A stretch of 36,691 bases of DNA, taken from the IMG/VR virus record IMGVR_UViG_3300037602_000179, positions 1 to 36,691 of that record. One strand, written 5' to 3'. The DNA comes from a virus (lineage: Duplodnaviria; Caudoviricetes). This document shows positions 4,593 to 30,618 of the stretch, in pieces. Position numbers and translations under genes: made by a program. Each line of letters begins with the position of its first letter. Position 1 is the first letter of the stretch. The notes under the pieces are model-generated. The model ran no database searches, was not told the DNA's origin, and saw only the letters and a program-made list of their open reading frames with translations.

Positions 4593-4602
4593 GGAGTTTA
4601 AT

Positions 4603-6822: not shown

Positions 6823-6829
6823 GGAAAAA

Positions 6830-8130: not shown

Positions 8131-8140
8131 GGAGGCTTAA

Positions 8141-8446
8141 ATGCCAGGTTTTGGACCTTTAGGGGCGAATGCCTCAACGGTGAGGCCGTCAGCAACCCCT
8201 GATGCTTATGGCGTGCAGACGTGGGCGAAAGATTGCTCAGCGGCTGGCGCATCTGATGGTACTATCATCGATGCCAGCTGGTTTAATACTCATACAGGTA
8301 ACTGGGTTTATGCTGCCGGTCAGGTTGGCGTGACGATCACAAACGATCAAACCAACGATACTTACTTTTATCAAATCATTCAGAACATTGCGCAGGCAGA
8401 AATTTCTGCGGCAATAACTTCACCTACACTTTCTTGGGGGCTGTAA
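8141..8446 (+). CDS. Tail fibre anchor protein (paralog A2)
   Basis: AAGGAGG RBS. GFGPLG...RPS..PD..G.QTW..D..A.GA.DGT is shared with 4603..5118. Confidence 0.6.
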   Translation: MPGFGPLGANASTVRPSATPDAYGVQTWAKDCSAAGASDGTIIDASWFNTHTGNWVYAAGQVGVTITNDQTNDTYFYQIIQNIAQAEISAAITSPTLSWGL

Positions 8447-8450
8447 ATAA

Positions 8451-9269: not shown

Positions 9270-9281
9270 ACGGGGGATTGC

Positions 9282-12284: not shown

Positions 12285-12297
12285 ATAGGAGAACCAT

Positions 12298-13011: not shown

Positions 13012-13012
13012 A

Positions 13013-13447
13013 ATGTCGGGCTTTGAAAGTCCGCTGATTGTTGAGATCCCGTTCATGGATAGCAGCGACATGGTTGTTATACAAAAGCAACTTGTTTACC
13101 GCTCATCCAGGTACGGGATTTTTAAAGTAAATAGGGGGTTTATTTCAGATCTTGCGTCGATCCCCAAGGGGGCTCGATGGCTGATCTCGAAAGTGGAAAA
13201 GCACTCGGCGGCAGCTGTCATACATGATGCTCTCTATGTGTACCATCCTTTGAGCAAGGAGGATGCTGACGATGTGTTCCTTGAGGCGATGGCCGTGAGC
13301 GGCGTACCTTTATGGAAGCGAGTAATTATGTACCTGGCTGTTAAATATCACGGTGGCCAGTACTTCGATAATCCCGATCAGAGGTCGGAAGACAAATCTC
13401 TGTTCGATCATGTGCCAAAAGTATCGGCACCTCAATTATCAATTTAG
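13013..13447 (+). CDS. DUF1353 family phage protein
   Basis: GFISDLASIP...AAVIHDALY...EDADDVFLEAM...GV..WKR.IMYLAV is the family signature. ATG at 13013. Confidence 0.85.
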   Translation: MSGFESPLIVEIPFMDSSDMVVIQKQLVYRSSRYGIFKVNRGFISDLASIPKGARWLISKVEKHSAAAVIHDALYVYHPLSKEDADDVFLEAMAVSGVPLWKRVIMYLAVKYHGGQYFDNPDQRSEDKSLFDHVPKVSAPQLSI

Positions 13448-13456
13448 GGGGACTGT

Positions 13457-14227
13457 ATGTATAGACATACGCATAAAGATCCTGTGATAGATCTCTGTGA
13501 CGATCTTATCGCAAGTACGGAGGGCTGCGAGCTTAAAGCTTATTATTGCCCAGGAGGCAAGCTGACCATTGGTTACGGTCACACTGGGCCGGATGTCTAT
13601 GAGGGCATGAAGGTTACTAAAGAGCAAGCGAATGAGCTTTTATTTAAAGACATTTGCCGGTTTAAGAACGGGGTCGAAAAGCTTTTAAAAAGAGCGGCTC
13701 AGCCTCATGAAACCGCCGCCTTTACTTCATTCGCCTTTAACATCGGCCTTGGTGCTTTTGCTCGATCCACGGCATTGCGCTGCTTTAACAGCGGTGAGTA
13801 TGGCACTTATGACAGGGCGGCTTTGCAGGCTTCGAATCTTGAGGATTTATCCGGCGTGATGTGGGGCTTTGCGGCCTTCCGCATGGTCAATGGGCAAATT
13901 AGCAAAGGGCTGGTTAAGCGACGAGCTTACGAAGCCGAGCTTTTTGCAACCGGCGGCTGGCATAGAGCCACGTCAGATCGAATGCCACAGGTGATAGATG
14001 ATCCTGAGCCAAAGCCAAGGATCTTGAGACCTGGCATGACGGGAGAGCTTGTTTCGCAGCTCCATGATGCTTTGGAGGAAGTTGGGCATCCTTGCTATGC
14101 GGGGAATGCTTATACGTTTGTGACGGCAGCTCAGGTCAAGGCCTTTCAGGCAAAGCATGGGCTTAAAGCCGATGGCATTTATGGTCCGGCCACTTGCGAA
14201 AAGTTAACGGAAGCTTTGGGGGATTGA
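13457..14227 (+). CDS. Phage endolysin: GH24 lysozyme plus C-terminal peptidoglycan-binding domain
   Basis: EG.ELKAY.CPGGKLTIGYGHT, SFAFNIG.GAF..ST.L, GLVKRR..EAELF. C-terminal LRPG..G..V..L...VKAFQAKHGLKADGIYGP. Confidence 0.92.
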   Translation: MYRHTHKDPVIDLCDDLIASTEGCELKAYYCPGGKLTIGYGHTGPDVYEGMKVTKEQANELLFKDICRFKNGVEKLLKRAAQPHETAAFTSFAFNIGLGAFARSTALRCFNSGEYGTYDRAALQASNLEDLSGVMWGFAAFRMVNGQISKGLVKRRAYEAELFATGGWHRATSDRMPQVIDDPEPKPRILRPGMTGELVSQLHDALEEVGHPCYAGNAYTFVTAAQVKAFQAKHGLKADGIYGPATCEKLTEALGD

Positions 14228-14228
14228 T

Positions 14229-14570
14229 ATGGACGTTGGAACAGTGATGCGCTTGGCCGCCAAACTTCTCGATGTGAATAAGGACGGCAATCTTGCGGGG
14301 GAGACAATGCAAATCGTCACTCCCATCGTTACGAAAGTTTTACCGGCGACGGCAAATCTTATGCCCTTAATTGAGACAATCGTGATGCCCGCTCTTGAGG
14401 AGACTCTTTCATATGAGGAGTATGATCAAATCAATGAGAGTATCACGATGATTAAGGACGGGCTGCAAGATTTGGAAATACAAGCCATGGCAAGCAGGGA
14501 TGCTGTTCTTGCCATGAGCTCAGAGGAACTTAAAGATCACGCTGAGAATACTGGCTTATTTAAGGATTAG
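14229..14570 (+). CDS. Hypothetical phage protein in the lysis region
   Basis: 113-aa ORF tightly packed after the lysin. No recognisable domain and no clear TM helix. Confidence 0.5.
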   Translation: MDVGTVMRLAAKLLDVNKDGNLAGETMQIVTPIVTKVLPATANLMPLIETIVMPALEETLSYEEYDQINESITMIKDGLQDLEIQAMASRDAVLAMSSEELKDHAENTGLFKD

Positions 14571-14574
14571 TTAT

Positions 14575-14862
14575 ATGAAAAAAGCTCTTTTGGTTACTGC
14601 TTCTCTCTTGGTTCTTGCGGGTTGTGATGGGGCTAATAATTTAGGCTCATTGATTCCTGTTACTGATGCCAAGAAAGAAGATCCTAAGCCTGATTATAAG
14701 GAGGCCTGCAAACAAGCCCAGCTATCCGGCTTGAACGATCTTCAGGTGTCTCGAAAGGATCAAACCAGCACGGTAAGTGGGGTTGCGGCGGTGAAGGCTT
14801 ATTGGGCCAAGCTATGCGCAAGCCCAGATAACGTGCCGATGAAGGTTCCGATTAAAAAATAA
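14575..14862 (+). CDS. Lipoprotein, possible o-spanin-like
   Basis: MKK signal peptide with LAGC lipobox. Last gene of the late operon. Confidence 0.6.
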   Translation: MKKALLVTASLLVLAGCDGANNLGSLIPVTDAKKEDPKPDYKEACKQAQLSGLNDLQVSRKDQTSTVSGVAAVKAYWAKLCASPDNVPMKVPIKK

Positions 14863-14891
14863 ATATTGAGAAATATTTTATAGATATGAGT

Positions 14892-14927
14892 AAGCCCCGA
14901 CGCCTTAATTGGTGTCGGGGCTTTTTT
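14892..14927 (+). terminator. Rho-independent terminator of the late operon
   Basis: AAGCCCCGACGCC-TTAATT-GGTGTCGGGGCTT hairpin followed by a T run, 30 nt after the last late gene. Overlaps the 3' end of the convergent ORF 14905..15132. Confidence 0.85.
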
Positions 14928-15132
14928 GCGTTTCTGATAGGATTTTTTCTAGGTTCTCGTTCATGATAGCGAGCATAATTGTTTGCTGCATCTGCATTTG
15001 CATAATGGCAAACATTAATCTATCTCCATTTACTCCATTCTCTTTTACTGAGCTTTCTAGCTCAGCAAAAGAGCTGATGGATTTATCTATAACGCTCTGA
15101 ACGCTTATTTCATTCCCATTCTCATCAATCAC
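14905..15132 (-). CDS. Hypothetical phage protein
   Basis: 75-aa ORF overlapping 15129..15341 by 4 nt. Confidence 0.45.
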   Translation of the reverse strand: MIDENGNEISVQSVIDKSISSFAELESSVKENGVNGDRLMFAIMQMQMQQTIMLAIMNENLEKILSETQKSPDTN

Positions 15133-15341
15133 GCCGCATTCTCCCTTTCAGTTAGTTCGTAAATAAGTGTTTGGACAGCATCCTCCTTGTTCGGACTGAT
15201 GCCATGCCTTGGATGTCCCTTTAATGCGTGCCATAAGAATTTTCTTTCTGACATGTAATACACATAACCAACGGGGATCTCGATTGGAATGCCACCATCT
15301 GAGTCACACTCCAATATTTTGTAAATACAACTTCCTTTCAA
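15129..15341 (-). CDS. Hypothetical phage protein
   Basis: 70-aa ORF with an AGGAG RBS upstream on the minus strand. Confidence 0.5.
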   Translation of the reverse strand: MKGSCIYKILECDSDGGIPIEIPVGYVYYMSERKFLWHALKGHPRHGISPNKEDAVQTLIYELTERENAA

Positions 15342-15408
15342 CTTTCATCTCCTGCAAACAATTACTTGATGCATTATTCATAAGATGAAAATATTAAAGA
15401 ATTGTTAA

Positions 15409-15870
15409 TTACAGTTGTCCGGTGCCACCATTAGCTCTTTCGGTGCTGCGAATCACTGAGATGTAAAGCATGAGATTATTCTTCTCGGTTTCCTTCGCAA
15501 TGTGAAGCAGGTCCATCGCTCTTGTGTTGTCTTGCTCTTCCAAGATTTGCTCGGAAATGCAATGAAGGTTTAGAAGAGTTTTCATGGCCTCTCTATAAAG
15601 ATCCCCCTCCCATGATGGTGCTGAAAGGGCGCAAAGCCCCTCCCTGGCTCCGGTGAGAAGCTTTGGGAGCCATTCCGCTCTTGAGTACCCGTTGAAGGCC
15701 TCCATGGCCTCAGCGCTTATGGGAGGGTCGTTTATGGGCAAGGGCGCTGGGCGTTGCTGCGGAGGCGGAGCCGGTGGTTGCTGCGGCTGTTGTTGGCCGT
15801 GTTCGGATTGAAGTTTTTGACCCGTCTCGATGAGCTGTTTTCTCGTCGGCATAATTTGATTTAAATTCAT
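15409..15870 (-). CDS. Hypothetical protein with Gln/Pro-rich linker
   Basis: ATG with GGGGG RBS. QQQPQQPPAPPPQQRPAPLP low-complexity segment, then a helical domain. Confidence 0.55.
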   Translation of the reverse strand: MNLNQIMPTRKQLIETGQKLQSEHGQQQPQQPPAPPPQQRPAPLPINDPPISAEAMEAFNGYSRAEWLPKLLTGAREGLCALSAPSWEGDLYREAMKTLLNLHCISEQILEEQDNTRAMDLLHIAKETEKNNLMLYISVIRSTERANGGTGQL

Positions 15871-15908
15871 GATTGCCCCCTAATTAAATTTAAAAGCAGC
15901 ATATATTA

Positions 15909-15927
15909 ATTTGCATTAAATGCAAAT
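15909..15927. promoter_or_regulatory. Palindromic operator candidate between divergent genes
   Basis: Perfect ATTTGCATT-A-AATGCAAAT inverted repeat in an AT-rich divergent intergenic region (15871-15999). Confidence 0.5.
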
Positions 15928-15999
15928 ATGTGCTTTAAGAAATTTCACTAGAGGAAAATTTAACACCCCTACTTGGGGTTGAAACGGGGGGGGGTACTT

Positions 16000-16410
16000 A
16001 TGAGTTTGCCTGATATTGTTGATACGTTGAAGAAAATGGAAGACATGGCTGAGGCTGCGGAGTTTGAGCTTAGACAATCAGGACAAATGAAAGATCCTGA
16101 GATTGCTGGAGTTCTTTTAAAAGATGCTTATAAGGATTATGGGCATCCGACGCCATTAAAGAAGGGGGATCTCGTTAAGCTCAAGAGTGAAAAAACACCT
16201 TACGCTCAACCATCTCCTGATGCCATAGCGCTCGTTGTGGAAGTTTGGGAGCCGGTTACAGCGAAAGAAGCTTCTGTAGCTGTGCAGGAAAAGTTCTCTC
16301 AAATCTATCGCGAAGACATTCTGATTTTTTGCAGGGTGATGGGCGTATGGGTTTATTTCAGCGTTGATAGTCGTTACTTTGAGAAGGTCGGGGAGATTGA
16401 AATTGACTGA
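16000..16410 (+). CDS. Hypothetical phage protein
   Basis: ATG at 16000 after a G-rich RBS. LKKGDLV.L...DSRYFE, possibly SH3/KOW-like. Confidence 0.55.
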   Translation: MSLPDIVDTLKKMEDMAEAAEFELRQSGQMKDPEIAGVLLKDAYKDYGHPTPLKKGDLVKLKSEKTPYAQPSPDAIALVVEVWEPVTAKEASVAVQEKFSQIYREDILIFCRVMGVWVYFSVDSRYFEKVGEIEID

Positions 16411-16780
16411 TTTTGTTAAAAGCATCGACCCCATCGATAAAAGGGTGGGAGAGATGATTAAAAAAAAGAGGCTACTTGCAGGTCTCACCCAAGGGGATCT
16501 TGGTGACGAATTAGGTCTGACTTTTCAGCAAATCCAGAAGTATGAAAATGGCATGAACCGCGTCTCGGCAAGCAGGCTTTATAGGATTGCTAAGGTGCTG
16601 AAGGTAAGTGTCAGCTACTTCTTTTCTGAGCTTGATAGCACAATTAAACCTGACCCAGCGGAGGCGATTTTGCGAACATCGGATGGAGTTAAGATGGCAA
16701 GGGCTTATTGCTCAATTAAAAATCCAAAGGTGAGGCGAAATGTGACAATTTTGGTTTCGTCACTGGTTGAGGAGGCATAA
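16403..16780 (+). CDS. XRE-family helix-turn-helix regulator
   Basis: DPID..VG..I..KR...GLTQ..LG..LGLTFQQIQKYENGMNRVSASRL is the alphaproteobacterial XRE signature. Start is uncertain (TTG 16403). Confidence 0.92.
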   Translation: MTDFVKSIDPIDKRVGEMIKKKRLLAGLTQGDLGDELGLTFQQIQKYENGMNRVSASRLYRIAKVLKVSVSYFFSELDSTIKPDPAEAILRTSDGVKMARAYCSIKNPKVRRNVTILVSSLVEEA

Positions 16781-17376
16781 TGTCACAAAGAAATAGTGAG
16801 TACGAACTCAAAGAGAATAATGATTATTTTACCCCTGACTGGGTGGTTCACAGGCTGTTTAACGGCTTTCCCTTCCCTCTCCTTGAGGGAGGGGTCTGGG
16901 ACCCGTGCTGCGGCGATGGCGGCATCGTTAAAGCGTGCCGAGCAAGGGGGTTGCGAGCAGATGGGTCTGATTTGAATGATTATGGCTTTGGTCAAACTGG
17001 GGTTGATTTCTTGGACATAAAAGATCTTCCCGTAGGCTTTCGCCATATAGTCACAAACCCGCCATATGGGCCGCAGGGCAAGCTTGCAGTCGATTTCCTT
17101 GAGCATTCATTGAACCTTGTTAGCAAATCTGAGGGGATGCTGGCTTTTCTTTTGAAGGTCAACTTTGATAGCGCAAAAGGAAGGCGACATATCTTTAAAA
17201 ACAACTATATGTTTGAGGGTGAGCTTAGGTTGCTTGAGCGAATTAGATGGACTAATCTTGTTCAAGCTGCGGCGGGACCTTCCGAGAATCATTCGTGGTT
17301 TGTTTGGAATGGGGAAGGACGGCGATTTAATTATCCGGTTAAGTTGTTCGCGGAGCCGATTGAGGCGGCAACATAA
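16780..17376 (+). CDS. Phage DNA adenine methyltransferase
   Basis: DYFTP, SAM-binding WDPCCGDG and catalytic TNPPY motifs. Confidence 0.85.
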   Translation: MSQRNSEYELKENNDYFTPDWVVHRLFNGFPFPLLEGGVWDPCCGDGGIVKACRARGLRADGSDLNDYGFGQTGVDFLDIKDLPVGFRHIVTNPPYGPQGKLAVDFLEHSLNLVSKSEGMLAFLLKVNFDSAKGRRHIFKNNYMFEGELRLLERIRWTNLVQAAAGPSENHSWFVWNGEGRRFNYPVKLFAEPIEAAT

Positions 17377-17427
17377 TGAGAGAGATGGTTTCGACCTTCT
17401 TTTTTATTTTAAGCAACACTAGGAGGC

Positions 17428-17724
17428 GTGATGCTGGAGGAAGATTTCAAGCTATTCTTTATAGAGGCTCTTGAGAATGGAGAGATTCCTATCATTAGGT
17501 ATCACGGGGGGTCTCAGCCAGGTAAGCTGAGGCACATTGACCCTAAAACAATTGGAAACGATCGCGTCAGAGCCAAGTGTTTAAATTCTAATGGGATTAG
17601 AACTTTTTTGTATAATAAAATTGAGATAATCGACGATCTGGATCAGGAAGCAGATAAGCGTTTTTACTCTCCCAAGCCAAAGAAAGGTGTGCTAGGTCGA
17701 TTTCTTGACTGGTTGTTTGGTTGA
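17428..17724 (+). CDS. Stand-alone WYL-like domain protein
   Basis: AGGAGG RBS. I.Y.GGSQPG..R.I.P..I....VRA.C..S...RTF...KI pattern resembles the WYL SH3 barrel. Confidence 0.55.
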   Translation: MMLEEDFKLFFIEALENGEIPIIRYHGGSQPGKLRHIDPKTIGNDRVRAKCLNSNGIRTFLYNKIEIIDDLDQEADKRFYSPKPKKGVLGRFLDWLFG

Positions 17725-17765
17725 GAAAAACAAGACCGCCGAGCGGAGGTACCAACTTTCTCGAA

Positions 17766-17794
17766 GATCCCCATCTCAATTAAAGATGGGGATC
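17766..17794. terminator. Hairpin between convergent units, probable bidirectional terminator
   Basis: GATCCCCATCT-CAATTAA-AGATGGGGATC, a perfect 11-bp stem between the WYL-like gene (+) and the integrase unit (-). U tracts are weak. Confidence 0.55.
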
Positions 17795-17887
17795 GAAATT
17801 GCAATCTAAAACACTGGCTCGCACACACCCTTCTCCTTAGTGACTTTCACCTTAACAAGCCCCATCTTCACATCTTGTTCGATATGT

Positions 17888-18100
17888 TTAAGTTTTTTGA
17901 GGATGTTTGAGGGATGTGTTTATTTGATGGGTATATTTCACAACCCCTTTAACAGCAATCTTCATAACTAGGTCAGGGTGATTCTGAACCTCAATATCTT
18001 CTTTAGGTACGCCTGCTGCCAGCAAACCAGATAAGCAATCCTCAATATAATCCATTTGCTCTTTGTGTAAATGAGAGGCTACTTCTTTGGGTGTTTTCAT
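17888..18100 (-). CDS. Hypothetical protein downstream of the integrase
   Basis: 70-aa ORF with ATG and a purine-rich upstream region. Confidence 0.45.
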   Translation of the reverse strand: MKTPKEVASHLHKEQMDYIEDCLSGLLAAGVPKEDIEVQNHPDLVMKIAVKGVVKYTHQINTSLKHPQKT

Positions 18101-18120
18101 TTCTCTATCTCTATATTAAT

Positions 18121-19407
18121 TTATCCGACCTTCTTAGCAGCTCGGATCATTGATATAACATTATCCTCTTGCACCTCATTGGCCAAGATAGCCTCAAGGT
18201 GCCTGCCCCATTGCTCCAGGGCCTTGCGCATCTCTGGTTCGTAATGGTGCCAGTCATAAACTTTATCATTAACTCCGCCGGTTCCTTGGTGATTAAGAAT
18301 CCTGTTTCTTAAATCTTTATCATAACCAAAGGAGCTGAGCTCTGTGTTCATGGTCCTTCTCAAATCGTGAGATGTAAACTTGAAGCCAAGTTCATCTCGC
18401 TTGCGTCTAATAGCCTGAACAACAACGTCATGCTTCATGGGCTCTTTTCCCCCACGCAACGGCGATGGAAAAAGATGCTTCGAATCTCCCGATAGCTCCA
18501 TTGCTCTTTTCACCAGTGAGACTGCTAATGGACTGAGCGGCAGAATGTGAATGCTGCTATTCTTTGTTTCAGGCAAAAAGTAAAGAGGGCGGTCATCCAG
18601 CTTCAGTCGATCTTTAGGCATCTGAACTATTTCTGAGGTACGCTGTCCGGTAACAAGCTCAAGCTTAGCCGCAATAGATGTCAGCTCCGACACATCCTTC
18701 CCTTTGAACCCGTTCCAAAAACGTCTGATCTGGTCGTTATCGAGAACGGTCTCCCTCTCTTCCTCCTTATGCCTCGCCCTGATACCTGAAGCCGGATTAG
18801 TGTTGACGACCAATTCATCCATCCCCCAGTTAAAAATCTGCCTCATCTTTTTCACGACTCTGTTGGACGTGACAAGCGAGCCCTTGTCATAAGTCTTGTC
18901 TCTGATTTTTTTTATGTGCAAGGGTGTGACTTCCATATGATCACCATCAACTCGTTTTTTTCCAATGACGGGGTAAGCGTGATTTTTCATCTGATTTCTA
19001 AAGTCATACATGGTGCGCTCTTTAACACCTCTCTCGACTAAGCTCTGCTTAATGAACAGCTCGACAAGATCTTCAAAGGTCACGCCCTTGTCAGCCCAGA
19101 TGTTTTTAGCGGCCTCTTTTCTTGCCGCCTCATCAGCGGCAGGATCTTGCCCCGAATTAATAGATGCTCTTAATTTGTTATATTCAGACCTGGCTTCCTT
19201 AAGCGAGGTTCCAGGGTAATAGGCAAAGGTGTGTCTGCGCCGAGCTCCGGCCTTGTTCGTGTAAACGATAGAGAAGGCCTTTGATCCTTTATTTACGCGC
19301 AGGCGCATTTTTGCTGATTGAGAATTTGTATCTATATAATCGTTTGAACTTTTACCGTCCTCACACTTGACACGATGAACAAAAGCATCGGTGAAGTTCA
19401 CCTTCAT
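18121..19407 (-). CDS. Tyrosine integrase with N-terminal arm-binding domain (P4-like family)
   Basis: Catalytic residues TGQR, TKN, HDLRR, LNH and VYD. N-terminal LRV...SKAF...Y.....RRR.....YP..SLKEAR arm domain. Adjacent to the tRNA att. Confidence 0.95.
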   Translation of the reverse strand: MKVNFTDAFVHRVKCEDGKSSNDYIDTNSQSAKMRLRVNKGSKAFSIVYTNKAGARRRHTFAYYPGTSLKEARSEYNKLRASINSGQDPAADEAARKEAAKNIWADKGVTFEDLVELFIKQSLVERGVKERTMYDFRNQMKNHAYPVIGKKRVDGDHMEVTPLHIKKIRDKTYDKGSLVTSNRVVKKMRQIFNWGMDELVVNTNPASGIRARHKEEERETVLDNDQIRRFWNGFKGKDVSELTSIAAKLELVTGQRTSEIVQMPKDRLKLDDRPLYFLPETKNSSIHILPLSPLAVSLVKRAMELSGDSKHLFPSPLRGGKEPMKHDVVVQAIRRKRDELGFKFTSHDLRRTMNTELSSFGYDKDLRNRILNHQGTGGVNDKVYDWHHYEPEMRKALEQWGRHLEAILANEVQEDNVISMIRAAKKVG

Positions 19408-19424
19408 AATTACCCCCTAAAATT

Positions 19425-19714
19425 TTTGCGGTACATTTGCGGTACACTACAGACAACGACACCTTTTTACAGCTTTGTACAGAAAACTACAACTCTGGAC
19501 AGTTATGCAAATAAAAACAGTGATTTGCAGGTGTTGTTGATTGTAGGGGGTTGTTGTGCTATGTCAAGTGGACCTATTGCCTTCTAAGCAGTAGGTCCGA
19601 GGTTCGAATCCTCGTGGGATCGCCATTTCTTTTTCAATAAAATCAACAGGTTAGAAGTAAGAACTCTACGGTTTTTACTCTTGGGTCTTGTCTAAATATT
19701 CTCTTGCGGTACAT
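19425..19714. repeat. Integrase arm-type repeats TTGCGGTACA, three copies
   Basis: Tandem TTTGCGGTACA at 19425-19435 and 19436-19446, and TTGCGGTACAT at 19704-19714, flanking the att core. Confidence 0.7.
19576..19625 (+). other. att core: 3' half of tRNA-Arg(TCT) comprising anticodon arm, T arm and 3' acceptor strand with CCA; not an intact tRNA
   Basis: ATTGC-CTTCTAA-GCAGT anticodon arm, CGAGG-TTCGAAT-CCTCG T arm and TGGGATCGCCA end. No 5' acceptor strand or D arm upstream. Confidence 0.9.
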
Positions 19715-20501: not shown

Positions 20502-22085
20502 ATGGCTGGGAATATCTTTATCAATTATCGACGCGAAGACACACAAGATTTCGCAGATAGTCTTTATGTTCGCTTAGAAAAAGCATTTCCGCGTGAAAAA
20601 ATTTTTATGGATGTTGATAACATTCCTCTGGGGCGTGATTTTGTTGAAGTTCTAGATGAGCAGGTATCAAAATGCGAAGTTTTGTTGGTGGTCATCGGCA
20701 AAAATTGGTTTGGAAAAAAGGAAAAAACTGATCTGCCATCTCGTCTACATGATCCTAAAGATTTTGTCAGGTTAGAAATAAGCGCAGCTTTAGCTCGTAA
20801 CATTCTTGTCATTCCTATATTGGTTCATGGTGCAGAAATGCCCAAAGAAAGCCAGCTGCCTGAAGATCTAAAGTCCCTGGCAAGACGGCACGCCATTCGA
20901 ATTTCCCATGAAGGACGCGGCAGCGATATTGGTCGGCTTGTGACAGAATTGAAAACCATTTTGGGAGATGACCAATCAGCCAGGAAAGCACAAAAACCTA
21001 ACTCTCATCTGATCAAATTAGGAGCTGTAGCCCTATTGGCTTTGGCAGCAGGGGGATGGTTTTTATATGGGTATCAAAAAGGTCAGGAGAATAGCGTCTC
21101 CAACAATGAGCAGGGAAAGCATAAATCACAAGCTGGCTATAAAGATATAAAGACAGTTCCTAATTCAGATGTCTTGAGCCTTCATGTCTCTAAAGATCAA
21201 AAATATTTTGGTCTTATGGGGTATTATGCACAAATTTGGGAATCGAAGACTGGTCGAATGGTGCGCGAAATTCCACGAACGCATAAGAATCTTCCTGGAG
21301 ATATTGTTTTTTCACCTGACTTCAGCACTATCGTCACAACTGGTTGTAATATTTATTCAAACAGTAAGAGCCGGTGTATAGAAGGGGAAGCCAAAATTCG
21401 GGAGTGGAAGAGCTTAAAACTCTTGAGGTCAATAAAAATTCACAAAAAAAATGCCTATGCTCTAGCAATGGCAGTCGATGGAAAATCGTTTTTTACCGCC
21501 GGCTGTGAAGATTACAACGATGAAAAAATTAAATGTGATTTGTTTTATTTAAAGCAATGGGACATCAATTCAGGCCAGCTCATTCAACAGATCAAATTAA
21601 ACAATATTATCTATTCCATCGCTGTCCACCCTAAAGGTGACATCTTATATCTAGGCGGGCTAGCCTCACAAATTGAAATTGTGAATATTAGGCGCGGTAC
21701 AGTGCAGGCAAAATTTTCAGGCTTTAAAGGCAGCATTTATTCTCTAGCACTTTCACAAGATGGTAAGATTCTGGCTGCTGGTGGTGGGGATGATAAGGTT
21801 ATGATTTGGAATGAAAAATATGCTGATCCAGAGATGACTTTATCTGGCCATAAGGATGATGTCATTAGTGTTGATATTTCGCCAGATGGAAAAAAGGTTG
21901 TTTCTGCCAGCCGTGATAGAACTGTTAGAGTCTGGGACCTATCCTCAAAAACATTGATAGATACATTTGAAAATTTTGATAATAACACTCTACATGCTGC
22001 CTTCATCTCAGGTGATAAAAAATTTGTGTCAGTAGAGCAATTCAAAGACTTTACAATTTGGCAAAAAACAACCGGTGAGGAGTAA
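20502..22085 (+). CDS. TIR domain - transmembrane helix - WD40 propeller protein
   Basis: IFINYRRED...IFMDVDNIPLGRDF...DFVRLEI TIR with the catalytic Glu. Hydrophobic LGAVALLALAAGGWFLYG. WD repeats such as GHKDDVISVDISPDGKKVVSASRDRTVRVWD. Confidence 0.9.
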   Translation: MAGNIFINYRREDTQDFADSLYVRLEKAFPREKIFMDVDNIPLGRDFVEVLDEQVSKCEVLLVVIGKNWFGKKEKTDLPSRLHDPKDFVRLEISAALARNILVIPILVHGAEMPKESQLPEDLKSLARRHAIRISHEGRGSDIGRLVTELKTILGDDQSARKAQKPNSHLIKLGAVALLALAAGGWFLYGYQKGQENSVSNNEQGKHKSQAGYKDIKTVPNSDVLSLHVSKDQKYFGLMGYYAQIWESKTGRMVREIPRTHKNLPGDIVFSPDFSTIVTTGCNIYSNSKSRCIEGEAKIREWKSLKLLRSIKIHKKNAYALAMAVDGKSFFTAGCEDYNDEKIKCDLFYLKQWDINSGQLIQQIKLNNIIYSIAVHPKGDILYLGGLASQIEIVNIRRGTVQAKFSGFKGSIYSLALSQDGKILAAGGGDDKVMIWNEKYADPEMTLSGHKDDVISVDISPDGKKVVSASRDRTVRVWDLSSKTLIDTFENFDNNTLHAAFISGDKKFVSVEQFKDFTIWQKTTGEE

Positions 22086-22149
22086 TTAATCAAAGCAAAT
22101 AGAGAACAAAAGCTGACGATAAAATTTTCTTACTTACCTTCCAACGCAA

Positions 22150-23202
22150 TCACTCTCTTCCCCTAACCATCACAGGGGCACCGCCATAAGCCAATAGCGC
22201 ATTCGCATCAGGGGCAATATCTCGAATATTGACCCATTCTTGATGCTCTGATGAAATTTGGTTTTGTACCAGGCGTACAAATGTTAGAACTTTTGACCGA
22301 TCTCCTTGTTGTGCGGCCTCTCGTGCCTCTCCTAACAGGGTTGATTGAATGTGCTCTAAGTTGGCAAGAGTTGTGGCATACCGCGCTGCGTTGCGTTCAT
22401 CCAAATCCATCAAGGAGCGAGCATAATTAGCTGTGTAGATACTAGCAGCAACAATGCCAAATGCCATCACGATGCGTTCATAAGAGCTAAGATTTAAAGC
22501 TGCAGCCCAAGAAGGTAAAGTGATCCAACCTTGCTCAGCTAAAAAATGCAAACTCGCCACTACAGTTATAAGTACCCAGACGCATGTTAAGCCGACACTC
22601 AATAATTTCCAAAGGTTTGTATGCCCGGCAGCTGCAAGATGTTGTGAACCACGTCCTTTATAATAAGCCAGTTGTACATCTAGCTGATAGCGCCGGAAAT
22701 ATTCAAGTTGTAGCGGAAGCAAAGCAGTCTCTTCTGACATGAGCGGTTCATCAGTTTGGACCACCTCATCAAACAATTGAATGCGTGTAATTTCAGCGAT
22801 GCCCCGATTTTCCATCCATTTTTTAAAGGGCTGTTTAATAACGAGCCATTGGGCAATAAGAAAGGCTATGACAAGCAACCCATATTCTACAGCTAAGGCC
22901 AGCCATTTGCTCTCCACACCAAATTTCTCATCTAACCGCAAGACAAGTGCAGTGCCGATGATGGAGGCTAAAGCAATAGCATAAATCCCGGCACGCCCCC
23001 AAAAGCGATACCATTTTTGCGATCGTATGGCTTTGGCATCTGCAGTGTAGAAACGGCTTATGATGTCTTCGATCTTGGGTTGTTCAAGAACACGTTTTAA
23101 GGCACCTGCCTCGGGCGGGAGGTTTCTGGCATGGATCGTCGGGCGTAGCTGCCAATCATCAGATTCGTTTTGACCGACAATGGATATTGGATCTTGAGAC
23201 AT
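22150..23202 (-). CDS. Membrane protein with two SLATT/DUF4231-like 2TM units
   Basis: Two TM hairpins, followed by W...R..AE..R and by RY...L...E...W respectively. Linker Y...L..Q..YY. This is the pattern of tandem SLATT domains. Confidence 0.65.
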   Translation of the reverse strand: MSQDPISIVGQNESDDWQLRPTIHARNLPPEAGALKRVLEQPKIEDIISRFYTADAKAIRSQKWYRFWGRAGIYAIALASIIGTALVLRLDEKFGVESKWLALAVEYGLLVIAFLIAQWLVIKQPFKKWMENRGIAEITRIQLFDEVVQTDEPLMSEETALLPLQLEYFRRYQLDVQLAYYKGRGSQHLAAAGHTNLWKLLSVGLTCVWVLITVVASLHFLAEQGWITLPSWAAALNLSSYERIVMAFGIVAASIYTANYARSLMDLDERNAARYATTLANLEHIQSTLLGEAREAAQQGDRSKVLTFVRLVQNQISSEHQEWVNIRDIAPDANALLAYGGAPVMVRGRE

Positions 23203-23336
23203 AAGAGTTTCTCTTGAAGTAAGCTTACGGAAATCCAGATCTATTCAAGGTTATCAATCTATTTCTGCCTTGTCATAAAACAAATCATCAGTTTTACTAT
23301 TATTGTTTAAAACTGTTGCATTTGAGTGAGGGCGGT

Positions 23337-26300
23337 ATGGCCGAAGGTAAAACGCAAGACGGGCAAGATAACAACCCTGAAAAGCTGAAAGTTTTTATTT
23401 CTTACTCACGGGTTGATGAAAAGTTTGCCGATGAACTCGTTGATGGTTTGAACTTTGATGGCCGCTTTGAAGTAACCATTGATCGCCATTCAATCAAGCA
23501 AGGTGAAAAATGGAAGCCTCGTCTACGTGCATTGATTGAAGCCGCGGACACGGTAGTCTTTATCCTATCGCCAGAGAGTGTCAGTTCTGAAATTTGCCAA
23601 TGGGAAGTGGATGAGGCTGAAAGGCTAAAAAAACGTTTGATTCCAGTATTGTATCGACCGCTTGAAGGGGGAACACCACCAGAGCAATTGGCAGATATAA
23701 ATTATATCGACTTTACTGGTGATGGCACCTTAATGGCGGGTGTTACAAATCTTGTGACCAGCTTAAAAGAAGACTTGAGTTGGTTAAAAGAAAGCACACG
23801 GCTTTTAAATTTGGCACTGGATTGGGAGAGAGCTGAGCGTCGTAATAATCGTTTGCTTTCTGGCCAAGATATAATTGATGCAAAAGCTTGGGTAGATGGC
23901 TGTCCTGAGGATTCTGAGATAACAGAATTACATCGAGATTATATTAAAGCTAGTGAGTTTGAAGAAGAAATACGAAAAGATGAGGAACGCAAGCGTTTAG
24001 AGGAGTTAGCAATCGCTTCAAAAAGAGTTGCTCGCCGCACGACAGTGGGCCTGCTAGCTTCTTTTCTTTTAGCTGGATTGGCAGTCTGGTTTGGTTGGCA
24101 AGCTTATTTGGGAGAACAAAAAGCAGAAAAACAAACAAAAATAGCCACTGAAAAAACCATTGAAGCAGAAAGACAGAGAGAAATAGCTGAGAAAAATAGT
24201 CAGGTTGCTAAATCTGAAAAAGAGAGAGCGAATACGACCTTAAAAGAGTCTCAGCTCTCACAAACAAAATTTTTATCAAAAAGTGCCACTGAGTTAATGA
24301 AACAAAATAGATTTGGATCATTACCAGCTTTACTTGCGCTTGAGGCACTACCGGATCCAAATAGTCAGAATGAGTTAAAACGTAGCCGCCCCTTTTGGTT
24401 GCAAGCGAACAATGCTTTGTTACGTTCAGAGTATTATAATTTAGAAAAAAAGATTTTTTCTGAGCATAAGCATTATGCCATGGATTTAGGCTTTAACGTT
24501 GATGATCATTATATCGTCGTCTCAAAAGACAAGGTTGTGCAACTATGGTCACTAGAAACAGGCAAGGAGCTCAAACGTTTTGAAGGTCACAAAAAATTTG
24601 TCACGAGTGTCGCACTGAGCACTGATGGCCAGTATATTGTCAGCGGGTCTCGGGACAATACTGTCCGGGTCTGGTCCGTCGCTACAGGCAATGAGCTCAA
24701 AAGGTTGCAAGGCCATGAAAATAATGTCACGAGTGTCGCACTGAGCGCTGATGGCCGGTATATTGTAAGTGGGTCTGATGACAAAACTGTCCGGCTTTGG
24801 GATTTTGCTACAGGTGAAGAGCTCAAACGTTTTGAAGAAGATAAATATACCTTCACTAAGGTGGCATTTAGCGCCGATGGTGACCATGTCGTCACCTTAT
24901 CATATGACATGACTGTCAGGCTTTGGTCCATGGCTTCAGGTGAGGAACTCAAACGTTTTAAAGTTTCTGAAAGACTTTCTTCTCTCTCTTCATTGAGTAC
25001 TGATGGCCGTTACATTGTCGTCGCGAAAGATAAGGCCTTGCAACTTTGGTCAATAGAAACTGGTAAAGAGGTGCAACTCTTTGAAGGTCATACAGATGTC
25101 ATCACTAGCATCGCAATGGGTTTAGATAATCGCTATATCATCAGCGGGGCTTGGGATAAAAGCGTAAGACTTTGGTCTGTTGAAACAGGAAAAGAAATTG
25201 CATTATTTGAAGGCCATGAAAGTTCAGTTATCAATGTGGCACTAACAGCTGATGATGGGCATATCGTCAGTTATTCAAGTGATAAAACGATACGAATGTG
25301 GGCTCTAGAAAGAGACCTTAAGAGCAAAAACTTTGAGGATCTTGAAAGTGATATCTATAGTGTCGTCATTAGCGCCGATGGTCGCTATGTCGTTAGTGGA
25401 TCTCTATATGGTACGATACGCCTCCGGTCAGTTTCATCCGGTGAGGAAATTAAACGCTTTAAGGGGCATGAGAGTGCAATTACTAGCTTATCGTTGAGTG
25501 CAGATGGTAAATATGTTGTCAGCGGTTCCTATGACAAGACTGTACGGTTATGGTCGCTAGAAACAGGTGAGGAGCTCAAGCGCTTTAAGGGGCATGAAAA
25601 AACTGTTAAAAGCGTGGCCCTAAGTGCAGATGGTCGCTATATCGTTAGCGGATCAAATGACAACACTGTGCGACTCTGGTCAACGAAAACAGGTCGCGAG
25701 ATTAAACGATTTAAAGGCCATGAATATCCAGTGACCAGCGTGTCCATAAGCGCGGATGGCCGGTATATGGTCAGCGGATCCTATGACAAGACTGTACAGT
25801 TATGGTCACTGGAAACAGGCCAAGAGCTCAAACGGTTTGAAGGCCATGAAAGTGATGTTACCAGTGTAACAATAAGCGCCGATGGTCGATTTATTGTCAG
25901 CGGCTCAAGGGATGAAACAGTACGGCTCTGGTCAACAGAAACAGGTAGAGAATTGAAGCGTTTTATTAACTACCGTTATACTGACACAGATATGCAAAAG
26001 AGGTTTACCAGAATGGTCGTGAGCTTGGCGCTAAGTGCAGATGGCAAGTATCTTTTAACTGGGTTAAGTGATAATTCAGTGCAGCTGTGGTCTGTAGAAA
26101 CGGATATGGTGATAAAAAGCTCATATATTTCAAAAGGCTTGCTAACCAGTGTGGCACTTAGTGCCGATGGACGACATATTGTCAGCGCTTCAAAAGCACA
26201 ACCCACGTTAAATAATAGGACTATACAATACTGGAATGTGCCAGAGTTCGCATTAATAGAAAGAGTACAAAACTCGATGCCAAGGTGTCTTACAAAATCT

Positions 26301-26480
26301 GAACGGTCGAGTTATTTCCTCTCTCTACAACCTCCTAGGTGGTGCATCACGGGGGTAGGGCAAGAAACAGAAAAAGACCCTAGTCTATGGCAACCTAAAT
26401 ACCCTTATCACACTAAGGCCTGGAAAGAGTGGCTCATGGCCAAAGATGCCGGTAAACCGGTCATTATGCCAGCAAAATAA
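23337..26480 (+). CDS. TIR domain - helical linker - transmembrane helix - 14x WD40 protein
   Basis: KVFISYSR...VFILSPESVSSEICQWEV TIR with the catalytic Glu. TM VGLLASFLLAGLAVWFGW. I count 14 WD repeats, mostly 42 aa. ATG 23337 follows GAGGG. Confidence 0.92.
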   Translation: MAEGKTQDGQDNNPEKLKVFISYSRVDEKFADELVDGLNFDGRFEVTIDRHSIKQGEKWKPRLRALIEAADTVVFILSPESVSSEICQWEVDEAERLKKRLIPVLYRPLEGGTPPEQLADINYIDFTGDGTLMAGVTNLVTSLKEDLSWLKESTRLLNLALDWERAERRNNRLLSGQDIIDAKAWVDGCPEDSEITELHRDYIKASEFEEEIRKDEERKRLEELAIASKRVARRTTVGLLASFLLAGLAVWFGWQAYLGEQKAEKQTKIATEKTIEAERQREIAEKNSQVAKSEKERANTTLKESQLSQTKFLSKSATELMKQNRFGSLPALLALEALPDPNSQNELKRSRPFWLQANNALLRSEYYNLEKKIFSEHKHYAMDLGFNVDDHYIVVSKDKVVQLWSLETGKELKRFEGHKKFVTSVALSTDGQYIVSGSRDNTVRVWSVATGNELKRLQGHENNVTSVALSADGRYIVSGSDDKTVRLWDFATGEELKRFEEDKYTFTKVAFSADGDHVVTLSYDMTVRLWSMASGEELKRFKVSERLSSLSSLSTDGRYIVVAKDKALQLWSIETGKEVQLFEGHTDVITSIAMGLDNRYIISGAWDKSVRLWSVETGKEIALFEGHESSVINVALTADDGHIVSYSSDKTIRMWALERDLKSKNFEDLESDIYSVVISADGRYVVSGSLYGTIRLRSVSSGEEIKRFKGHESAITSLSLSADGKYVVSGSYDKTVRLWSLETGEELKRFKGHEKTVKSVALSADGRYIVSGSNDNTVRLWSTKTGREIKRFKGHEYPVTSVSISADGRYMVSGSYDKTVQLWSLETGQELKRFEGHESDVTSVTISADGRFIVSGSRDETVRLWSTETGRELKRFINYRYTDTDMQKRFTRMVVSLALSADGKYLLTGLSDNSVQLWSVETDMVIKSSYISKGLLTSVALSADGRHIVSASKAQPTLNNRTIQYWNVPEFALIERVQNSMPRCLTKSERSSYFLSLQPPRWCITGVGQETEKDPSLWQPKYPYHTKAWKEWLMAKDAGKPVIMPAK
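24440..26240 (+). repeat. 126-bp-period WD40-coding tandem repeats
   Basis: Recurring GAGCTCAA(A/G)CG.TTT.A.GG.CATGA and GC.GATGG.CG.TAT.T.GT.AG.GG motifs at 126-nt spacing. Confidence 0.8.
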
Positions 26481-26489
26481 TATCTAGTC

Positions 26490-27683
26490 TTAAGCTGTTG
26501 AGCTTAGATCAAACCCACTTGCAAAATCTTGCTGCTGGACTTGTCGGCTCACAGCTTCTTTAGCAAGCTCATAGGCAAGATCTAAATTTTTAGGGTTGTC
26601 GAATTCTCGAAGCTCTTTAACTTTTTCATCAGATAGATCAAGTCCAAGAGTTTCCTTAAGCCAGTCTTGCTCTAGGACGACATCATAGTGCTGGAAAGAA
26701 AGCAGGCTCTTGCCAGGTTCAATATGGTCGCTTAAGCACTCTCCTGTAAGGTCTCCAATTTCAGAATTAATCGGCCAGCTTTGGTTGGGGTTAGAAAGCC
26801 ATTGCAACAAAGTGAGAACCATAGTTTCATTATCAGTTATGAGCCCCTGAAGCGCATCAATGGCCATGATGCCCGCAACCCGTTTGTGCATTTTTTCTGC
26901 ATCATATTTATTTCTATAGTGCCCCGTGCCAACAGAAGTTATTAGAAGGTTATCAGGTCCAAGTGGCCAATTGAAACCATATCCTTTAATACCAGCAAGC
27001 ATGAGGCTTTGTAGCGCTGGGTTGTTATGCGGTGAAACACCGCCATCAATAAAAGCACCAGGTTTTTCTCCCTGCACAACTTCAAAAGATTTGTGGGCAA
27101 AATAATAAGGCGCTGCCGTGCTGGCACGTACCAGGTTGGAGAGTTTATAGGATTTATTACCGATATAATCTGGCTTGCCTGTTTCTGGATTATCAGCAGG
27201 ATCATTCCAAAATTTTGAATTTGGGTTATTGGTCAAAATCCACGGGCTGCCCGTATCCAACCTTTTCATCATGATGGCCAAACCAGTTTTTAACTCATCT
27301 GAGTCTAATGTGAGACCTTGTAATTCTTCTTCTATGCGTTTTGTTAATTGTCTTTCATTAAATTTTGGCGCCAGCCCGCCAATGCGATACCATGGTTTTT
27401 GAAAAATTTTCGGCGCCCAATCTTGAAACCGTTCTTTAACATAAGCTGCTGTTTTTCCTTGAGCTAACAAGGTTGCCAACATTGCACCAACGGAAGTGCC
27501 GCTAATGAGGTCATAATAATCTGACAAGCGAAAATCATCGCCTTTTCCTGAGCGTTCTTTCAAGATCTTTTCAATTTCTTCCAAAAAGGCAATGGTAATA
27601 ATACCGCGCGTACCACCGCCAGATAATGAAAGTACGCGTTTTGGTCCAGGCTGTTCAATTCTTGCTTTGATATTTTCGGACAT
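26490..27683 (-). CDS. Patatin-like phospholipase
   Basis: Intact GGGTRG oxyanion loop, GTSVG nucleophile elbow, ASTAAP and catalytic DGG. Confidence 0.93.
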   Translation of the reverse strand: MSENIKARIEQPGPKRVLSLSGGGTRGIITIAFLEEIEKILKERSGKGDDFRLSDYYDLISGTSVGAMLATLLAQGKTAAYVKERFQDWAPKIFQKPWYRIGGLAPKFNERQLTKRIEEELQGLTLDSDELKTGLAIMMKRLDTGSPWILTNNPNSKFWNDPADNPETGKPDYIGNKSYKLSNLVRASTAAPYYFAHKSFEVVQGEKPGAFIDGGVSPHNNPALQSLMLAGIKGYGFNWPLGPDNLLITSVGTGHYRNKYDAEKMHKRVAGIMAIDALQGLITDNETMVLTLLQWLSNPNQSWPINSEIGDLTGECLSDHIEPGKSLLSFQHYDVVLEQDWLKETLGLDLSDEKVKELREFDNPKNLDLAYELAKEAVSRQVQQQDFASGFDLSSTA

Positions 27684-27801
27684 CTGTCACCCCACGTACA
27701 AAACGGAACAATAAAGACAAGTCATATTTTTCCTGTATTATAGAGGTGAAAAAAGAAATGTCTTGTTTGTTTTAAGGTGAACCCGCAAGAGGAAGAGAAG
27801 C

Positions 27802-28419
27802 GTGGCAAAAAAAACAATCAAACAAGTTAAACCAATCATAATTGGCGTGACAGGGCATCGCAATCTAAATAGCAATGATCAGAAGCTCATCAAAAAAATC
27901 ACAGGTGAGCTTCGCTCCATAAGAGATGCTCATCCGGGAGCCGAATTTGTTTTGCTTACTGGGCTTGCCGAAGGTGCTGACCGGTTGGTCGCAAAATTAG
28001 CAATAAAAGAACTGAAGGTAAGGCTAATTTCTGTTCTAGCTGTGCCAGAAGAGTTTTTTGTGATGGATTTTACTGATGCGCAATCGAAGCGGCAATTTAA
28101 AAACTATTTGAAGAAATCAGATGAAGTTCTAACGGCACCTTTGCTCTCTAAAAAAGCCTGGCAAAACTATTCACCCTCTCGCAACAACCAATATGCTTGG
28201 ATCGGAGCCTTTATTGCATTGACCTCAAATTATCTGATCGCAATTTGGGATGGCAAACCTGCTCGCGGACGTGGTGGCACGGCGGAAGTTGTTCGTTGGT
28301 TTAAACATGGGCGCATACCAAAGTTGATGCTAACAGAAATGACCCCAAATATGCGCAAAGTTGGTTTGAGAAAGCGAGACAAGAAATCAGTTCATGAGTT
28401 TGTGCATGTAAAGGTTTAG
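27802..28419 (+). CDS. Stand-alone SLOG-superfamily (YpsA-like) nucleotide-binding protein
   Basis: IGVTGHR, TGLAEGAD and LIAIWDG....G.GGTAEVV motifs. GTG start with a purine-rich RBS. Confidence 0.78.
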   Translation: MAKKTIKQVKPIIIGVTGHRNLNSNDQKLIKKITGELRSIRDAHPGAEFVLLTGLAEGADRLVAKLAIKELKVRLISVLAVPEEFFVMDFTDAQSKRQFKNYLKKSDEVLTAPLLSKKAWQNYSPSRNNQYAWIGAFIALTSNYLIAIWDGKPARGRGGTAEVVRWFKHGRIPKLMLTEMTPNMRKVGLRKRDKKSVHEFVHVKV

Positions 28420-28564: not shown

Positions 28565-28813
28565 TCAAGCGTTCATTTCCCAAATCAATTTCTCTCCATT
28601 GTTTGAGATTGTTACACCATGCTTATTGAGGGCGGTAAGTATTTTCTCAACAGTTTCAACTTTTGCGGTTAAGACCTGTTTTTCCACTTCGACACGTCTC
28701 AAGGTAGAGATTGCAACACCCGCTTCATCTGCCAATTTTTGATGAGTGAGACCTGCCGCGACTCTAGCAACTTTAATTTGAATTCCCTTGATGACAATCA
28801 TTCTCATATCCAA
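28565..28813 (-). CDS. Small XRE-family HTH protein
   Basis: QIKVARVAAGLTHQKLADEAGVAISTLRRVE...AL..HGV pattern. Confidence 0.8.
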   Translation of the reverse strand: MDMRMIVIKGIQIKVARVAAGLTHQKLADEAGVAISTLRRVEVEKQVLTAKVETVEKILTALNKHGVTISNNGEKLIWEMNA

Positions 28814-29187: not shown

Positions 29188-30618
29188 ATGGAGTATTTAG
29201 TGTAGCCAGTTGTTTTATCTGGTGGAAGCGGAACACGCTTATGGCCTTTATCAAGGTTGTCTTTCCCAAAACAATTTTTAGACCTCGTTGGTAAGACATC
29301 TCTATTTCAAAAAACTATACAAAGAGTACAAGGTAAGCAGTTTTTATCCCCTTCTATTATGTGTAACTCAGAGCATCGCTTTATAGTTGAGGAGCAGCTA
29401 GGCAGAATTAATGTTAAAGCTGATAATATAATACTCGAGCCAGTTGGTAGAAATACAGCACCAGCTGTTTTATCGTCAGCTCTGTTGGCTTCTAAAACAA
29501 ATGAAAATCAATTAATACTTATATTACCTTCAGATCATTTAATTGAAGAAGAGTTGCAGTTTCAAAGTTTAATTACTTCTGCTGTACCTGCAGCTTTGGA
29601 CGGTCAGGTAGTCTTGTTTGGTATTGCACCGACTTCAGCCCATACAGGTTACGGTTATATTGAAGTTACAAAAGAGAAAATAGCGTCCACGAACATTGTG
29701 AAAAAATTTCACGAAAAACCGAGTGGATCTCTAGCCAAACAGTATATTGCCTCAGGGGATCATTTCTGGAATTCAGGAATATTTTTATTTAAAGCGCAAA
29801 CTATTATTGAAATCTTTGAACATTTAGAGCCAAAGATGGTTGAGTTATGTCGAGCTTCAATTGAAGAGGCTGAAAAAGATTTAGATTTTATCCGCTTAAA
29901 AGAAGTACATTATAAAAAATGTAAAAATATATCACTTGATTATGCTGTCATTGAGCAAATTTCAAACATAGTTTGCAGCCCATGTGAATGTAAGTGGAGC
30001 GATCTGGGGTCATGGAGTTCAGTAAAAGATATTACGCCATCAAATGATGAAGGTAATTCAAAGCAAGGTGATGTGCTATTTGAAGATAGTAGCAATTGTT
30101 ATGGCTATAGCTCTGATGGAAGAAAAATAGCCTTTGTAGGAATGGAAAATACCATAGCCGTGACTACAAAGGATGCGATTCTAATAACCTCTAAAGAAAA
30201 GTCCGAAGATGTTAAAGCGATTGTAGATAAAATCAAACACACAAATTGTGATAGTGCAATCCATCATAAAAGAGTGTATCGCCCATGGGGGTGGTATGAG
30301 AGTTTGGATAATGATGATCGCTACCAAGTTAAGTGTCTTATGGTAAAGCCAGGGGCAAAATTATCTTTGCAAAGTCATCATCACAGAGCAGAGCATTGGG
30401 TTGTCGTCTCTGGTTCTGTCAATGTAACGGTTGATGATGCTATTTCTCTCCTTTCGGAAAACCAATCTACCTACATCCCAATTGGCGCAACTCATCGATT
30501 AGAAAATCCAGGAAAAATACCCGCTCTCTTAATTGAGGTACAATCGGGAAGCTATCTGGGCGAAGATGACATAGTCCGCTATGAGGATGTTTATGGGCGG
30601 GTTGAAGTTGATGCTTAA
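29188..30618 (+). CDS. manC: Mannose-1-phosphate guanylyltransferase / mannose-6-phosphate isomerase; in-frame TAG at 29203-29205 (possible pseudogene)
   Basis: PVVLSGGSGTRLWPLSR (upstream of the ORF-track start), FPKQF, EPVGRNTAPA, WNSGIF, WSDLGSW and cupin RPWG...HHHRAEHWVVV. Confidence 0.92.

Follow-up and report, generated by a model that had tools for sequence, protein, structure and literature searches.

Nucleotide-centric systems built from SLOG, SLATT and TIR domains were reportedly predicted by Burroughs et al. in 2015 and by Burroughs and Aravind in 2020. Thoeris systems, in the accessible part of the type VII report (10.64898/2025.12.03.692087), are described as a TIR protein paired with one effector. 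Type I has a SLOG-gated SIR2 protein (ThsA), type III has several TIRs and a SLOG-containing effector, and type VII, which is anti-phage and uses canonical cyclic ADP-ribose (cADPR), joins the TIR protein ThsB to the SLATT protein ThsH. The same part of the report lists "phospholipase" effectors as untested, and its supplements may bear on novelty. Shaseng, by the accessible text of its report, has two TIRs and a SLATT (10.1101/2024.12.27.630466). In the BcTir/BcTpr systems, which are TPR-centred and based on nicotinamide adenine dinucleotide (NAD+), a YspA-type SLOG, patatin and TIR are variable partners of one conflict scaffold, again by the accessible text (10.1101/2023.05.26.542521). We analysed a cluster of five genes at 20502..28419 of a 36,691-nucleotide stretch of DNA from a virus record (IMGVR_UViG_3300037602_000179; the whole stretch is called the window). 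The cluster is proposed to work like a Thoeris system, and its five genes likely form, as read from sequence, a Thoeris-like cell-suicide defence circuit. Its components, and the scheme of a TIR that signals, a SLOG that senses and a SLATT or phospholipase that acts as effector, have precedents in Thoeris types I and VII and in Shaseng. The tight unit of patatin and YpsA-like SLOG, the SLATT family of the window, and membrane TIR receptors free of an NTPase are new.

The five adjacent genes are all uninterrupted open reading frames (ORFs):

20502..22085, plus strand: receptor 1, with a SARM1-like TIR, one hydrophobic helix and a WD40 propeller (ORF and domain scan); optional
22150..23202, minus strand: SLATT-family membrane protein of 350 residues with SLATT_3/SLATT_1-like units (profiles); predicted pore effector
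23337..26480, plus strand: receptor 2, with a TIR, helical linker, hydrophobic helix, coiled coil, 14 WD40 repeats and a Cys-pair tail (ORF and hidden Markov model, HMM)
26490..27683, minus strand: patatin-like phospholipase with intact GGG, GxSxG and DGG (PF01734), CapV-related and below the CBASS cut-off
27802..28419, plus strand: stand-alone YpsA-like SLOG of 205 residues (model fold); predicted reader of a nucleotide signal, tied to the patatin

The gaps between them are 64, 134, 9 and 118 bp, in agreement with the 9-134 bp given by an earlier sequence-only reading of this DNA. That reading had also cautioned that the strands alternate, so the five genes are not one operon, and we agree.

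With Thoeris in general, the window shares TIR domains with the catalytic Glu and a TIR that is genomically linked, loosely, to a non-TIR effector. With type VII and Shaseng it shares intact-Glu TIR genes beside a SLATT effector, and there are two TIRs as in Shaseng. Unlike in those systems, each window TIR is part of a large WD40 receptor anchored in the membrane, the SLATT protein belongs to a distinct 350-residue family, and the cluster further includes a patatin and a stand-alone SLOG. WD40 and patatin are unmentioned in the accessible main text of the type VII report (10.64898/2025.12.03.692087). The likeness to types I and III lies in several TIR genes and in a TIR signal that would be read by an enzyme-controlling SLOG. 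Compared with type I, the window SLOG is a stand-alone protein of 205 residues with no SIR2 and no ThsA match, YpsA-like and phospholipase-coupled; compared with type III, the window TIRs scored 31.8 and 37.3 bits on ThcB4 (cut-off 220), and ThcA had no match.

The patatin shares its fold and catalytic motifs with CapV of CBASS (cyclic oligonucleotide-based antiphage signalling systems), whereas its score (107 bits) lies below the CBASS_lipase cut-off of 200 and its partner is a SLOG. No CD-NTase cyclase was found among the five genes or in the annotated flanks. In contrast to the BcTpr systems, the window has no TPR/glycosidase scaffold gene and its patatin and SLOG are directly coupled; WD40 and SLATT are absent from the accessible main text of the BcTpr paper (10.1101/2023.05.26.542521). 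The receptors resemble the TIR-nSTAND1-WD40 proteins, which are NLR-like (like nucleotide-binding leucine-rich-repeat receptors), in their order of TIR, helical linker, hydrophobic helix and WD40 sensor, but the central STAND NTPase of these and of the Avs and other NLR-like STAND systems is missing from both. Animal Toll-like receptors share with them the single-pass layout with the TIR inside, and the likeness is one of layout only. The window SLOG, by its model, has the Rossmannoid fold of the YpsA clade of the SLOG superfamily.

The sequence-only reading had not recognised the combination as a named system, and this view still holds, as the PADLOC and NCBIfam matches were all partial or below cut-off. 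Our literature search did not find the combination of patatin, SLOG, SLATT and TIR-WD40 described; a prior prediction in the Burroughs/Aravind papers or in bioRxiv supplements is possible. In the accessible parts of Kaur 2020 (PMC7159879) and Kaur 2021 (PMC8195603), patatin was absent.

Linkage was analysed from the patatin side in 301 Hyphomicrobiaceae genomes, the family of one metagenome-assembled genome (MAG). From 89 patatin matches, 80 were taken with 8 kb on either side, and nine weak or fragmentary ones were excluded. Patatin was present in 76 genomes, SLATT in 48, SLOG in 37, and all three in 16. Each gene pair was enriched two- to three-fold: patatin with SLOG was observed in 29 genomes (9.3 expected), patatin with SLATT in 26 (12.1) and SLATT with SLOG in 20 (5.9). 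The 80 patatin loci carried SLOG in 27 cases, SLATT in 19, TIR in 18, SLOG and SLATT in 15, all three in 9 and TIR-WD40 in 5. Where SLOG was present (27 loci), it lay directly downstream on the same strand in 21 (overlap or gap of at most 46 bp) and was fused to the patatin in 2. Seen from the SLOG side, 27 of the 38 SLOG matches in these genomes were near patatin and 4 more adjoined SLATT. TIR genes occurred in 12 of the 31 patatin loci that also had SLOG or SLATT, compared with 6/49 of the others (p 0.012); given 16 TIR matches in 22.5 Mb of background sequence, about 0.3 loci were expected by chance. Direct adjacency and fusion, as evidence, do not hinge on how complete the genomes are.

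From the SLATT side, an alignment of 50 sequences was used and the best 80 of 97 GTDB loci were taken, in which the best named relatives were mostly from Alphaproteobacteria. The best 49 loci showed patatin in 19, SLOG in 13, TIR in 15, and patatin with SLOG in 11; for the best 80 of 97, these values were 20, 14, 33 and 12, respectively. Among the best 49, 29 loci were at least 15 kb long, and a partner was present in 16 of them. A scan of metagenomes from the SLOG side (best 80 of at least 502 loci) showed TIR in 31 and patatin in 3; most of these SLOGs were longer fusion proteins, and the two closest stand-alone SLOGs adjoin patatin. The TIR partners near patatin or SLATT varied (WD40, Sel1, TPR, FGE-sulfatase, lysozyme, YARHG, RHS, nSTAND1, FHA-RDD). 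Beside patatin or SLATT genes we also observed a TIR fused to a phage-type lysozyme (L008:4773-7937), a TIR-YARHG protein (L004:6618-7964) and a TIR-PASTA-papain-like protease (L269:1714-3147).

Natural fusions were found as well. Single TIR-WD40-SLATT chains of 1413-1439 residues, alignable end to end, occurred in three genomes (L200, L202, L208), and a partial fourth in L203. A TIR-patatin fusion occurred in L259, a single TIR-WD40-patatin in L202, patatin-SLOG fusions in L022, L212 and L237, and a SLATT-TIR fusion in L010; extensions in L195 and L210 were left out of the counts. By these fusions, each component is physically tied to another in some genome. Failure of the genes to co-occur elsewhere had been named beforehand as telling against the cluster, and the result was the opposite, with co-occurrence and fusions across many alphaproteobacterial genomes, Hyphomicrobiaceae among them.

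Strain variants were compared in contigs from 4 of 24 listed sequencing runs, including X9, X11 and X14; the list contained no RNA run. In run X14 all five genes were present in two contigs with a 178-bp hole. In run X11 the tRNA end (19635) joins 22166 directly, so gene 1 is missing, and genes 2-5 stay together up to 28521. Receptor 1 is thus optional, absent in one strain. The idea of one five-gene system therefore stood as to linkage and failed as to a fixed set, as the loci are loose, the TIRs vary and X11 has no gene 1. A fixed five-gene system was rejected on the same grounds, with TIR variable or absent in loci that carry the patatin-SLOG-SLATT trio. The conserved core is patatin plus SLOG, often with a SLATT of the window type, and the whole is a real, recurrent and modular conflict system.

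This evidence also bears on whether two or three independent units simply gathered at a tRNA hotspot, the TIRs killing by NAD+ depletion while patatin-SLOG and SLATT answer other signals. The alternating orientation, the loss of gene 1 in one strain, the trio loci without a nearby TIR and the SARM1 NADase as the sequence-closest structure of TIR1 would all agree with such a gathering, and conflict genes cluster anyway. We judge it quite unlikely, as TIR-WD40 is fused to SLATT in three genomes and TIR to patatin in two, the TIR enrichment is specific to patatin loci with SLOG or SLATT, and genes 2-5 travel together in X11.

The window patatin matched PF01734 (expect value, E, 5e-26), and its best PDB match was CapV (E 4.5e-20). 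Its motifs GGG, GTSVG and DGG, of which the last two had been reported as kept, are all present and align with CapV. The SLOG had been read as stand-alone, and we concur; its Pfam match is weak (YAcAr, E 2.5e-4, below cut-off) and its fold is clear. The model (predicted local distance difference test score, pLDDT, 93.6) showed its best match to YpsA (2nx2; Foldseek E 1.4e-6, Z 16.0, root-mean-square deviation 2.6, 152 residues aligned). By sequence, the SLOG profile gave only spurious OmpH matches in the PDB. Three polar motifs, GHR, AEGADR and WDG..G.GGT, were invariant. In L195:7734-9788 a patatin carries a C-terminal extension of 200 residues, with no Pfam family, where the SLOG would sit; this is possibly an alternative sensor domain.

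The invariant motifs could be catalytic, and the SLOG might be a brake in the same circuit, setting a threshold either by breaking down or sequestering the messenger or by keeping the patatin inactive as an antitoxin would. Viral YpsA-clade SLOGs were proposed, in the accessible text of one study, to degrade cADPR-like signals (PMC9503650), and the SLOG was seldom far from patatin or SLATT, with patatin often alone. Many patatins of the family have no SLOG nearby, however, which fits poorly with an obligatory antitoxin, and the ThsA SLOG activates its fused enzyme in a layout that the patatin-SLOG fusions share (accessible part of 10.64898/2025.12.03.692087). A braking role is therefore unlikely, and an activating SLOG is preferred.

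Both large proteins contain TIR, hydrophobic helix and WD40 as first read, the second with 14 WD repeats by our own HMM. The TIR of receptor 1 spans residues 12-143 of a TTG-started ORF, and its nearest structural relative by sequence was the NADase SARM1. The Glu that had been pointed out in both TIRs was confirmed: in the alignment, the Glu of DFVRLEI in TIR1 falls on that of SARM1 WVHKEI, the catalytic residue of SARM1, and the Glu of TIR2 was present in 120/120 listed homologues. Across fetched loci and the window, 49/49 aligned TIR regions had it. Only about 20-90 residues separate TIR from helix in the window receptors, which leaves no room for a STAND NTPase, so neither receptor has one.

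The hydrophobic helix of receptor 2 is preceded by a basic patch. It was retained in 107/120 homologues, and in 96 of those 107 the residues before it were richer in Lys and Arg. Elsewhere the TIR-linker module of receptor 2 is fused to Sel1, lysozyme, FGE-sulfatase and peptidoglycan-associated lipoprotein domains; Sel1, lysozyme, FGE-sulfatase and peptidoglycan-associated domains are usually exported. In the receptor 1 propeller there are two pairs of Cys, each spaced by ten residues (C282/C292, C335/C345). From the basic patch, the exported-type fusion partners and the Cys pairs, the TIR is predicted to be cytoplasmic and the propeller periplasmic in the window receptors. A hypervariable sensor was considered and was not seen, with 2.2% of propeller residues and 2.3% of TIR residues changed between two strains.

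The membrane protein had been read as a double SLATT with four transmembrane helices. The SLATT part stands, weak by profile and in two stretches; of the helices, hydropathy showed three at a threshold of at least 1.7 and not the fourth. Against NCBIfam SLATT_1 the protein scored 40.2 bits (cut-off 41) over two stretches, SLATT_3 was matched by 46 of the 50 members of its family, and an HH comparison matched it to a canonical SLATT_3+SLATT_1 protein (probability 85%, 93 columns). The model was all-helical (pLDDT 90), and its PDB fold search gave no match at E<=0.001. The sequence marks the 350-residue protein as a divergent SLATT of a distinct family, and it is predicted to be a pore effector.

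Distant relatives showed other arrangements. In Actinomycetota (L050, L051, L057, L058, L060, L062, L064, L066, L068-L070, L072, L075), a distant member of the SLATT family adjoins a TIR protein of about 520 residues, often with a second SLATT gene in the same locus. In L050, the sole Actinomycetota locus scanned, a TIR-GDPD (glycerophosphodiester phosphodiesterase) fusion has a canonical SLATT_3+SLATT_1 gene next to it. Two Methyloligellaceae genomes (L024, L032) have the SLATT gene flanked by a TIR-RDD-FHA protein and a peptidoglycan (PG)-binding/caspase protein. Two named Paracoccus genomes (L061, L071) carry the SLATT family near a TIR gene and are possible tractable sources for experiments.

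On its left side the cluster borders a prophage, at the following feature:

~19570..19626, plus strand: partial tRNA-Arg(UCU), from anticodon to 3' end (Rfam-type score 25.4 bits, below the gathering score); likely attR of the left-hand prophage, outside the system

The cluster had been placed beside a tRNA hotspot. The 3' part of a tRNA-Arg is there as a prophage att site, about 880 bp from gene 1 and adjoining the integrase, and the intact tRNA is not, as ARAGORN found no tRNA in the window and Rfam none at gathering score. The left 19.4 kb is prophage by its baseplate, lysozyme and integrase genes (domain annotation). The prophage (1-19626) carries Mu-like baseplate genes, a 1000-residue LamG/DUF7483 protein, a lysozyme with a PG-binding domain and a tyrosine integrase; its att site has an extended inverted repeat (19570-19597) centred on the tRNA-Arg anticodon loop. 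In run X9, a macroalgae metagenome with near-identical DNA, a 40.5-kb contig spans 20345-31500 and joins it to the tRNA end, and depth was zero across 17001-19505. As this contig joins the cluster to the tRNA end without the prophage, the cluster is host chromosome. The cluster as prophage cargo was rejected on this contig and on the search of viral contigs, in which no relative of patatin or SLATT was found. A plasmid search gave no match for the SLATT protein and 11 distant ones for the SLOG. A promoter scan found 23 sites, against 24.3 in shuffled sequences.

To the right, an 82-residue ORF (28565-28813, minus strand) resembles, on visual inspection, an XRE-type helix-turn-helix regulator. 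It is probably outside the cluster, because it lies past 28521, where the X11 contig departs from the window. A manC-like gene (mannose-1-phosphate guanylyltransferase/isomerase; 29188-30618, plus strand) has an in-frame TAG at codon 6, before the nucleotide-binding motif, and is either a pseudogene or an assembly error. It opens an O-antigen-type locus with an ATP-binding cassette (ABC) transporter, a glycosyltransferase and an FkbM methyltransferase.

From anatomy, motifs, folds, co-occurrence, fusions and the loss of receptor 1 in one strain, we lean slightly towards the following circuit. The predicted periplasmic propellers would bind some cue on the envelope side, for instance an attacking phage or cell-wall damage, and the receptors would then cluster. 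The clustered cytoplasmic TIRs, judged by their intact Glu and by known TIR chemistry, would cleave NAD+ and give an ADP-ribose-derived messenger. The SLOG, given its tight gene coupling and fusions, may bind this messenger and turn on the patatin, which would hydrolyse membrane lipids, while the SLATT protein likely answers the same messenger by opening a pore, in the manner proposed for type VII Thoeris. Death of the infected cell would follow. Patatin, SLOG and SLATT would be the stable output, and TIR receptors the exchangeable inputs.

Several observations weigh against this circuit. No SLOG, SLATT or TIR was within reach in 43/80 patatin loci, entire patatin clades had no partners in a quick tree, and 13 of the 29 longer SLATT loci had none. 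TIR was present within 8 kb in 9/15 trio loci and absent in 6/15. The patatin-side sample is centred on a trio-bearing genome and includes incomplete MAGs, its counts are not phylogenetically independent, the genome searches scored only a handful of candidates in each genome, and some eight loci are common to both test sets. The TIR-WD40-patatin of L202 could be two in-frame genes, because a Met stands just ahead of the patatin domain. The window patatin and SLOG are divergent, whereas the usual pair is co-directional, and the SLOG fold compared with ThsA gave Z 7.3, far below the value for YpsA. The fusion proteins have no hydrophobic helix between TIR and WD40, so the WD40 chassis can be cytoplasmic and outside sensing is predicted for this window only. 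Residue changes in the propeller do not exceed those in the TIR, and there is thus no sign of a fast-evolving sensor.

The trigger was also weighed. The circuit could be wired as proposed and serve stress-induced lysis or membrane remodelling, with damage to the envelope, competitors, predators or an algal host as its trigger. Cell-wall domains (lysozyme, YARHG, PG-binding, M15 peptidase, PASTA) occur in related TIR fusions and neighbours, near-identical DNA came from the macroalgae metagenome, and YpsA itself is reportedly tied to cell division (PMC6459960). Such a non-phage role is decidedly improbable, given that the tested TIR and SLATT systems are anti-phage (accessible parts of 10.64898/2025.12.03.692087 and 10.1101/2024.12.27.630466) and that the locus lies at a prophage integration site.

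Beyond the Thoeris-like defence circuit, we tentatively suggest, as a possible though doubtful extension, a bacterial Toll-like-receptor pathway. Single-pass TIR receptors with exchangeable periplasmic sensors would detect an envelope attack before phage DNA is expressed and feed a shared cytoplasmic output, in which the SLOG is a messenger-gated switch of the patatin. Periplasmic sensors were noted in other systems, by the accessible part of one source (PMC10907252). If this pathway is true, a phospholipase under SLOG control would add a new type of effector, and the YpsA-clade SLOGs would gain a ligand. The natural patatin-SLOG and TIR-WD40-SLATT fusions allow a direct test of the wiring and could show which ligand YpsA-type SLOGs bind. 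Outward sensors on membrane TIR receptors would mean that bacterial immune signalling can cross the inner membrane, as in Toll-like receptors.

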